Positions 21,608-22,646 of a stretch of 26,494 nt of DNA are shown in pieces. This DNA is from Gammaproteobacteria bacterium (GTDB taxonomy: Bacteria > Pseudomonadota > Gammaproteobacteria > Arenicellales > Poriferihabitantaceae). The position numbers were made by a program, and so were the translations under genes. Position 1 is the first letter of the stretch; each line of letters begins with the position of its first letter. The notes beneath the pieces are model-generated. The model saw only the letters and a list, made by a program, of their open reading frames with translations, searched no databases and was not told where the DNA came from. The stretch lies in the NCBI GenBank assembly GCA_020027415.1, contig JAHRAW010000047.1:1-26494 (forward strand), in the 5' to 3' direction.

Positions 21608-21683
21608 TGGTGCCGGAAAGAGGAGTCGAACCTCCGACCTACTGATTACGAATCAGTTGCTCTACCGACTGAGCTATTCCGGC
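21608..21683 (-). tRNA. thrW: tRNA-Thr(CGT), 76 nt, CCA encoded
   Basis: Full cloverleaf: acceptor GCCGGAA/TTCCGGC, D-arm GCTC/GAGC, anticodon arm ACTGA-TTCGTAA-TCAGT, T-arm GGAGG-TTCGACT-CCTCT, 3' end ACCA. Confidence 0.98.
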
Positions 21684-22646
21684 AGTTGGGATGCTAAGAC
21701 TTTGAGATTCTTTGTGAGTGTGAAACGAATCGCGCAAACCCGCCGGCAACGAAAAGGCGATGTTCTCTTGCGGACCGCTGAGTTCAATGGCCTGTTCCAC
21801 GCTTTGCCCAAGCCGTTCAATCACCGCGGCAACCAACGACTCCGGCGCCGAGGCGCCGGCGGTAACCCCGGCGCATTTTTTGCCGACCAACCAGCGCGCT
21901 TTAATTTCATCGGGACCGTCAATTAAAAAAGTCGGCACGCCGCGCAGTTGCGCAATCTCGCGCAAGCGATTGGAATTGGAACTGTTGGGAGAACCGACCA
22001 CAAACATCACCTCGCAATCTTGCGCCAACCGCTTGACCGCATCTTGGCGGTTCTGCGTAGCATAACAAATGTCGTCCTTTCTTGGACCGACAATCTCCGG
22101 GAACCGCTTCTTCAACGCGGCGATGAGCGTCGCAGTATCATCCACCGACAATGTGGTCTGGCTGACATAAGCGAGTTTGCGCGCATCGCGCACTTGCAGC
22201 CGCGCGACATCCCGCATGTTTTCCACCAAGTGCAAGCCGCTCTCCGCCTGCCCCATAGTGCCTTCCACTTCGGGATGTCCGGCATGCCCAATCAAAATCA
22301 CTTCCAAGCCGAGTTTGCGGTATCTGCGCACTTCCACATGCACTTTGGTAACCAACGGACAAGTGGCGTCAAATATATTCAGCGCGCGGCTGGCGGCTTC
22401 CCGCCACACCGCTCTGGAAACACCGTGGGCGCTGAAAATCACCGTGGCGTGCGCTGGAATTTCATCTAAATTATCAACGAAAATCGCGCCTTTGTTACGC
22501 AAATCCTGCACCACAAAGCGGTTATGCACCACCTCGTGGCGCACATAAATCGGCGCGCCGTGTTTTTTCAGCGCGCGTTCGACGATTTCAATCGCGCGTT
22601 CCACGCCGGCGCAAAATCCTCTGGGTTTGGCAAGCACAACTTTCAT
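21639..22646 (-). CDS. ispH: 4-hydroxy-3-methylbut-2-enyl diphosphate reductase; its C-terminus overlaps tRNA-Thr
   Basis: Motifs [48 protein letters not shown] and TAGASAP. GGAG RBS before ATG 22646. Stop TAG 21639-21641 lies inside the tRNA. Confidence 0.96.

Follow-up and report, generated by a model that had tools for sequence, protein, structure and literature searches.

The window, as we call the whole 26,494-nt stretch of DNA that was analysed, carries on its minus strand an ispH (LytB, HMBPP reductase) gene whose reading frame (21639..22646, 335 aa plus TAG) ends inside the gene for tRNA-Thr(CGT) (21608..21683, minus strand, CCA encoded, found with ARAGORN and Rfam RF00005). The frame enters the tRNA at base 1 (21683) and the same-strand overlap is 45 nt long (21639..21683): tRNA nucleotides 1-42 are read as 14 codons, and nucleotides 43-45, at 21639-21641, are the TAG stop. 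Past ..FSLPAGLRD, the frame crosses a former intergenic spacer that now forms 15 in-frame codons (21684..21728, minus strand) and aligns with the intergenic promoter region of relatives, and then the 14 tRNA codons, exceeding the usual IspH end by 29 codons in all. An earlier note on this DNA had described this anatomy from the letters, and each coordinate and residue that it gave was correct; a TAG in another frame, which it placed at about 21695, lies at 21694-21696. A frameshift that would make this TAG the real stop was considered and rejected, as the region holds no slippery motif.

Both partners of the overlap look like ordinary genes. In the list of open reading frames the ispH frame spans 21639-22667 on the minus strand (342 aa), and the true start is likely the ATG at 22644-22646, which yields the 335-aa protein (P0001) and is suggested by an upstream GGAG and by the alignment of homologues. 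The protein matches Pfam LytB (PF02401) with 332 bits, its residues 3-279 covering profile positions 1-266 of 267, and C12, C96 and C194, the cysteines that bind the 4Fe-4S cluster in IspH, are invariant in a 40-sequence IspH alignment. A whole-genome search finds this one copy of ispH in the assembly. The C-terminus departs from the family, running 30 residues past the FSLPxxL(K/R) motif, and this extension leaves membership of the catalytic IspH family unaffected. The tRNA, the only one that ARAGORN finds in the window, scores 75.4 bits against the Rfam tRNA model (gathering score 29) and has a complete cloverleaf with all four arms.

An AlphaFold2 model built on the 40-sequence IspH alignment has a confident core, with a mean pLDDT of 82.9 and 289 of the 335 residues at 70 or above, and residues 308-335 fall below 50. 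The 29-residue tail is thus predicted to be a disordered, floppy appendage on an otherwise normal IspH. At the RNA level, a 151-nt read-through RNA, folded to its energy minimum, retains the cloverleaf, which follows a leader with no structure. Immediately before tRNA +1 the frame has a complete ACT codon, and A residues appended at that point would add AAA (Lys) codons rather than a stop.

Upstream, ribF, lspA and ispH abut (22668-24145, minus strand): the ribF stop overlaps the lspA start, the lspA TAA stands directly before an ATG, and ileS and fkpB are absent between the three genes. On the other side, a plus-strand gene (20275-21507) encodes a DNA methyltransferase (PF01555, 160 bits) with a T5orf172 domain (34.9 bits) fused at its C-terminus. 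Gene and tRNA are convergent, their 3' ends 100 nt apart. A genomic island with an att repeat at the tRNA was considered and rejected, since the window contains no second copy of the tRNA 3' 25-mer at up to 3 mismatches.

Independent contigs across the junction

The source assembly is a fragmented metagenome-assembled genome of an uncultured gammaproteobacterium (MAG; 244 contigs, 1.56 Mb, 92.7% complete), and the earlier note had named an assembly indel as an alternative origin of the long frame. Of the words sampled from 1 kb of sequence surrounding the site, 88-95% occur in sediment, cold-seep and metatranscriptomic-labelled sequencing runs from three studies, and we compared the Logan contigs of three runs (X1, X3 and X4) with the window across 20900-23300. 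The X1 contig covers 21655-22313 with 0 differences, the X3 contig covers 21637-23140 with one difference, which lies in lspA and outside ispH, and the X4 contig covers 21654-23300 with 8 differences, all at or beyond 22314. The differences listed for these contigs include no insertions or deletions, and none of the independent contigs has a listed base difference within 21582-21992. The overlap allele is carried by slightly different strains in several habitats.

Contigs of the three studies cover 21637-21760 identically. Because three independent runs are identical over the junction and free of indels, we reject the assembly-indel explanation: none of the three data sets lists a frameshift that would restore a stop before 21684. 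The wider possibility that an assembly or binning error, or an indel, created a false open frame draws on the fragmentation of the MAG into 244 contigs and on the fact that the Logan contigs break within the tRNA. These breaks are expected because the k-mers of a tRNA are common to many organisms, and other pieces that overlap them, such as X3 21423-21666, extend into the 3' side and join it to the junction. With the frame also continuous with a normal full-length IspH, an artefact can hardly be the explanation.

The X4 run is labelled as RNA, and its contig spans ispH down to 21654 and so includes the first 30 nt of the tRNA. Genes of both strands are covered at an even, DNA-like depth, and X4 therefore provides no evidence of transcripts.

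Stop codon and tRNA promoter in relatives

The order of ispH, a short spacer and tRNA-Thr(CGT) on one strand is kept in 9 of 11 same-genus genomes and in several beyond the genus, among 40 related genomes. In 0 of 11 relatives with the same synteny do ispH and the tRNA overlap; their ispH stop always precedes the tRNA. Conservation of the overlap was sought in these 40 genomes, in 80 named genome loci, in the 119 best of 8000 scored IspH homologues from a collection of 5.8 billion proteins (70-82% identity), and in a search with the tail only. All 119 of these best homologues end 0-15 residues after FSLPxxL(K/R), and none of the 119 reads into a tRNA; the last 42 residues, searched against the 5.8 billion proteins, retrieve only the window's own protein. 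A conserved arrangement is therefore rejected, there being no match in genomes, loci, homologues or the tail search. The earlier note had proposed aligning the ispH 3' ends and the tRNA from close relatives, and that alignment places the overlap in this lineage only. On these comparisons the overlap is confined to one lineage and fixed there. The nearest IspH homologues, and the nearest other genome, are about 82% identical to the window's IspH.

The tRNA itself is ordinary by the same comparison. Its first 45 nt, the part shared with ispH, are identical to those of two genus relatives (G002 and G007), and over its whole length it matches its counterparts beside ispH in genus relatives fully or at all but 1-3 positions. 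Its sequence is thus not bent towards coding.

What has changed is the spacer. We aligned the junction of the window with those of six genus relatives, and homology within so short and diverged a spacer is our inference. In this alignment the window's TCG codon (21726..21728, minus strand) occupies the column that holds the ispH stop (TAG, TAA or TGA) in five of the six relatives. In genus relatives the spacer has an obvious TATAAT with GC-rich sequence downstream of it, and this TATAAT, the -10 box of the tRNA promoter, aligns with AAGAAT in the window (21707..21712, minus strand). Several genus relatives have TTGAAA or TTGAAG 16-17 nt upstream of TATAAT, formed by the Leu-Lys codons that end IspH and doubling as the -35 box; the tRNA promoter of these relatives therefore straddles the ispH stop. 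The window has TTGCGC at this place (21732..21737, minus strand), encoding Leu-Arg.

The best remaining promoter-like site of the window is CTCACA-16 nt-TAGCAT (21691..21718, minus strand), which ends 7 nt before tRNA +1, includes the out-of-frame TAG at 21694-21696 and retains T1, A2 and T6 of the -10 box. With a simple, E. coli-type sigma-70 position weight matrix (PWM), which may miss a real promoter in this host, the tRNA promoters of 8 of the 11 relatives score 9-13.5, and the window's best site upstream of the tRNA scores 5.8, the level of background (340 null windows: median 5.0, 90th percentile 7.5, maximum 10.7). We find no minus-strand terminator-like site within 21608-21760.

One genus relative (G008, locus L005) has also lost its canonical ispH stop. 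Its IspH (P0022, with the tail ..LKADKPPHIV) continues for 7 more codons and ends at the TAA within TATAAT, which makes the -10 box a back-up stop in that frame; by the alignment, the canonical ispH stop appears to have been lost twice in the genus, in two independent events. In the window, both the native stop and the back-up stop of the -10 box appear to be gone, and the ancestral state was in all likelihood that of the relatives, a stop codon together with a dedicated tRNA promoter.

The same synteny occurs in Burkholderiales, with spacers down to 12 nt and the stop before the tRNA; across the genus relatives and some Burkholderiales, the spacers between ispH and tRNA-Thr(CGT) measure 12-80 nt. 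In two Burkholderiales loci (L057:2440-2460 and L106:2440-2460) the ispH stop TAG lies 12 nt before tRNA-Thr(CGT) and is part of a TAGAAT -10-like box, and in a third (L095:2434-2470) the stop lies 25 nt before the tRNA. These layouts indicate that overlap between the end of ispH and the tRNA-Thr promoter is widespread beyond the window's genus.

Origin and possible consequences of the overlap

If the native stop is removed, the probability that 45 nt of spacer with this composition contain no in-frame stop is 0.48-0.60, and tRNA-Thr(CGT) has stops in all three frames (nucleotides 8-10, 36-38 and 43-45). With the spacer open about half the time and a tRNA stop waiting in every frame, the overlap is no improbable coincidence after a stop loss. 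Termination within the tRNA is the expected outcome of stop loss at the ispH locus. What is rare is the loss of the stop, which none of the 119 best of 8000 scored homologues shows. Among the 33 tRNA neighbourhoods of the MAG, ispH is the only real gene that enters a tRNA. Three other ORFs (119-140 aa) that do so were rejected as Arg-rich shadow frames beside or over csrA, rpsI and ispB-like genes. CsrA usually has about 60 aa; a CsrA-like gene on another contig of the assembly (C77; L033:907-1317), upstream of tRNA-Ser(gct), encodes about 136 aa in total, with a long acidic, Gln/Pro-rich C-terminal extension.

We consider it probable that the overlap is a fixed, lineage-specific and near-neutral loss of the ispH stop, the costs of which are tolerated in an apparently reduced genome. 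The earlier note had listed a neutral stop loss among its alternatives, and the comparative evidence favours it: the overlap is found in one lineage only, and the predicted structure shows a disordered tail. The ispH 3' end, the tRNA-Thr(CGU) promoter and the tRNA would have been packed within a few dozen bases, and changes of the stop to TCG and of TATAAT to AAGAAT would have left a 45-nt spacer free of in-frame stops. Translation would then run on to the UAG at tRNA positions 43-45, with the unchanged tRNA sequence simply dictating the last 14 residues of IspH, and the arrangement would most likely be neutral or slightly harmful. Against the near-neutral stop loss, the sampling has no population or phylogenetic depth, the nearest other genome being only about 82% identical in IspH, so neutrality lies beyond the reach of a substitution-rate test. 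The joint loss of stop and promoter could also be read as a coordinated change. Moreover, three studies of different habitats recovered the variant, in strains that differ by SNPs at other sites; it is therefore stably maintained, without strong harm to its carriers.

A near-neutral origin would still have consequences for expression. Transcripts of ispH, probably of a murJ-ribF-lspA-ispH unit, would be expected to continue across the tRNA, as a terminator has no space here and none was detected, and such read-through probably existed already in the ancestors, as in E. coli secG-leuU. Together with the lack of a good sigma-70 promoter, the lack of room for a terminator makes co-transcription of ispH and the tRNA plausible, and with its own promoter degraded part or most of the tRNA may derive from ispH transcripts. 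RNase P cleavage at +1 would strip the ispH mRNA of its stop and leave its ribosomes to rescue, and a ribosome positioned at the UAG would cover much of the tRNA and might transiently block or delay its folding. It is therefore plausible that RNase P and ribosomes would be in conflict over read-through transcripts, the more so because the tRNA has no good promoter left.

The assembly measures 1.56 Mb, compared with 2.1-3.1 Mb in the genus, and the genome seems to be reduced or else the assembly is less complete than its marker estimate; the small size may reflect incompleteness rather than genome reduction. A genome-wide ARAGORN search gives 33 tRNAs, with tRNA-Thr(CGT) as the sole Thr tRNA, and the remaining Thr tRNAs must be encoded in sequence missing from the assembly. 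Of the Thr codons, 23.5% are ACG; given this share and the position of tRNA-Thr(CGT) as the sole Thr tRNA assembled, it is presumably needed. RNase P RNA is present in the assembly (315 bits). Searches of this 92.7%-complete assembly, which lacks about 7% of markers, detected neither SmpB nor ArfA nor a short ArfB, and no tmRNA above threshold. SmpB is present in 10 of the 11 genus relatives, and the non-detection of the rescue factors is probably due to a missing contig; if real, the loss of all known routes of ribosome rescue would be remarkable.

The alternatives differ in what they would make of the shared RNA. The tRNA may be made from its own weak promoter, CTCACA-16-TAGCAT, with a start at or 1-2 nt before +1, and the ispH mRNA translated to the UAG, with RNase P acting on read-through RNA too slowly or too seldom to create a conflict. 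This alternative shares its origin with the near-neutral stop loss and differs only in having no consequence for expression. TAGCAT does keep the three most conserved -10 positions 7 nt from +1, and in the Burkholderiales the same layout occurs with a TAGAAT 9 nt from +1, in a box that contains the ispH stop. However, CTCACA-16-TAGCAT scores at background, and pre-tRNA structures within longer transcripts are generally good RNase P substrates (PMC2241853), and we regard separate expression without conflict as unlikely. At the other end, the tRNA-Thr(CGU) promoter may be lost altogether and the tRNA derived mainly from RNase P-cut ispH read-through, so that mutually exclusive mRNA and tRNA fates set the output of IspH. 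We think this quite unlikely. If true, each tRNA made would leave one non-stop ispH message, each terminating ribosome would delay tRNA folding, and the locus would be an example, found in nature in a bacterium, of a transcript that can serve as mRNA or yield tRNA but not both.

It is very unlikely, in our judgement, that the overlap is a functional coupling, in which RNase P cleavage and translation compete for one transcript and tie isoprenoid synthesis to tRNA processing or translation status, as the earlier note had suggested. Such a coupling would agree with the absence of a terminator or of room for one, with the poor promoter before the tRNA, with a cloverleaf that still forms in the fused RNA and with the presence of RNase P RNA; the ACG share indicates that the tRNA matters, and in secG-leuU RNase P indeed parts mRNA from tRNA, with an mRNA half-life of <30 s (PMC2241853). 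Yet the arrangement occurs in no relative and in none of the 119 best homologues, no sensor or condition-dependent element is evident, and the depth of X4 is flat and DNA-like. tmRNA, SmpB, ArfA and ArfB, moreover, were not found in the incomplete assembly, and the tmRNA arm of the earlier note's model is thus left with no anchor in it. Nothing supports a regulatory role of the overlap, including one over the output of the MEP pathway.

Relation to known gene arrangements

Four known kinds of arrangement resemble the locus. In the secG-leuU operon of E. coli, RNase P cuts at tRNA +1 and so parts the mRNA from the tRNA, after which the upstream mRNA has a half-life of <30 s (Mohanty and Kushner 2008, PMC2241853). 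As in the window, a coding gene there lies directly upstream of a same-strand tRNA with no terminator between them. The secG stop, however, lies upstream of the tRNA and cleavage leaves a complete ORF, whereas the stop in the window is formed by tRNA nucleotides 43-45; co-transcription is known for secG-leuU and is plausible for the window. The ispH/tRNA-Thr(CGT) loci of relatives are closer still, sharing gene order and strand; their tRNA promoter overlaps the end of ispH, the Leu-Lys codons containing the -35 box, and their stop adjoins the -10 box or falls within it. They differ in that all of them stop before the tRNA, whereas the window has neither that stop nor the TATAAT.

Overlaps between coding sequences and tRNAs are familiar from animal mitochondria, where tRNAs punctuate the transcript, so that excising the tRNA interferes with keeping the mRNA intact. 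The mRNAs there usually break off at T or TA, and polyadenylation supplies the rest of the stop codon. The likeness is that bases of one strand, in one transcript, belong both to a coding frame and to the tRNA next to it. In contrast to mitochondrial punctuation, cleavage at +1 in the window would leave ...CCAACU, with no incomplete stop of the T or TA kind, and the window belongs to a bacterial chromosome with ordinary intergenic spacing elsewhere. The IspH tail also resembles stop-loss extensions, which are variable, unstructured and confined to single lineages, and the IspH tails of relatives vary from 0 to 15 residues; the difference is that the backstop in the window is part of a functional gene for a structural RNA, read from the same strand.

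A full-text search of a literature library returned no bacterial housekeeping coding sequence that terminates inside a downstream same-strand tRNA, a result that is not proof of novelty. We regard the locus as an mRNA-tRNA unit, or a stop-loss extension, whose stop lies inside the tRNA.

For annotation, the locus is a warning that a CDS-tRNA overlap flagged as an error can be real. It also illustrates how a tRNA gene with stops in three frames acts as a backstop for upstream reading frames. If it is only a tolerated stop loss, it is a small, clean example of drift at packed junctions of gene, promoter and tRNA. If ispH and the tRNA are co-transcribed, the locus would be a natural experiment in which termination, tRNA folding, RNase P cleavage and ribosome rescue race one another on the message of an essential gene.
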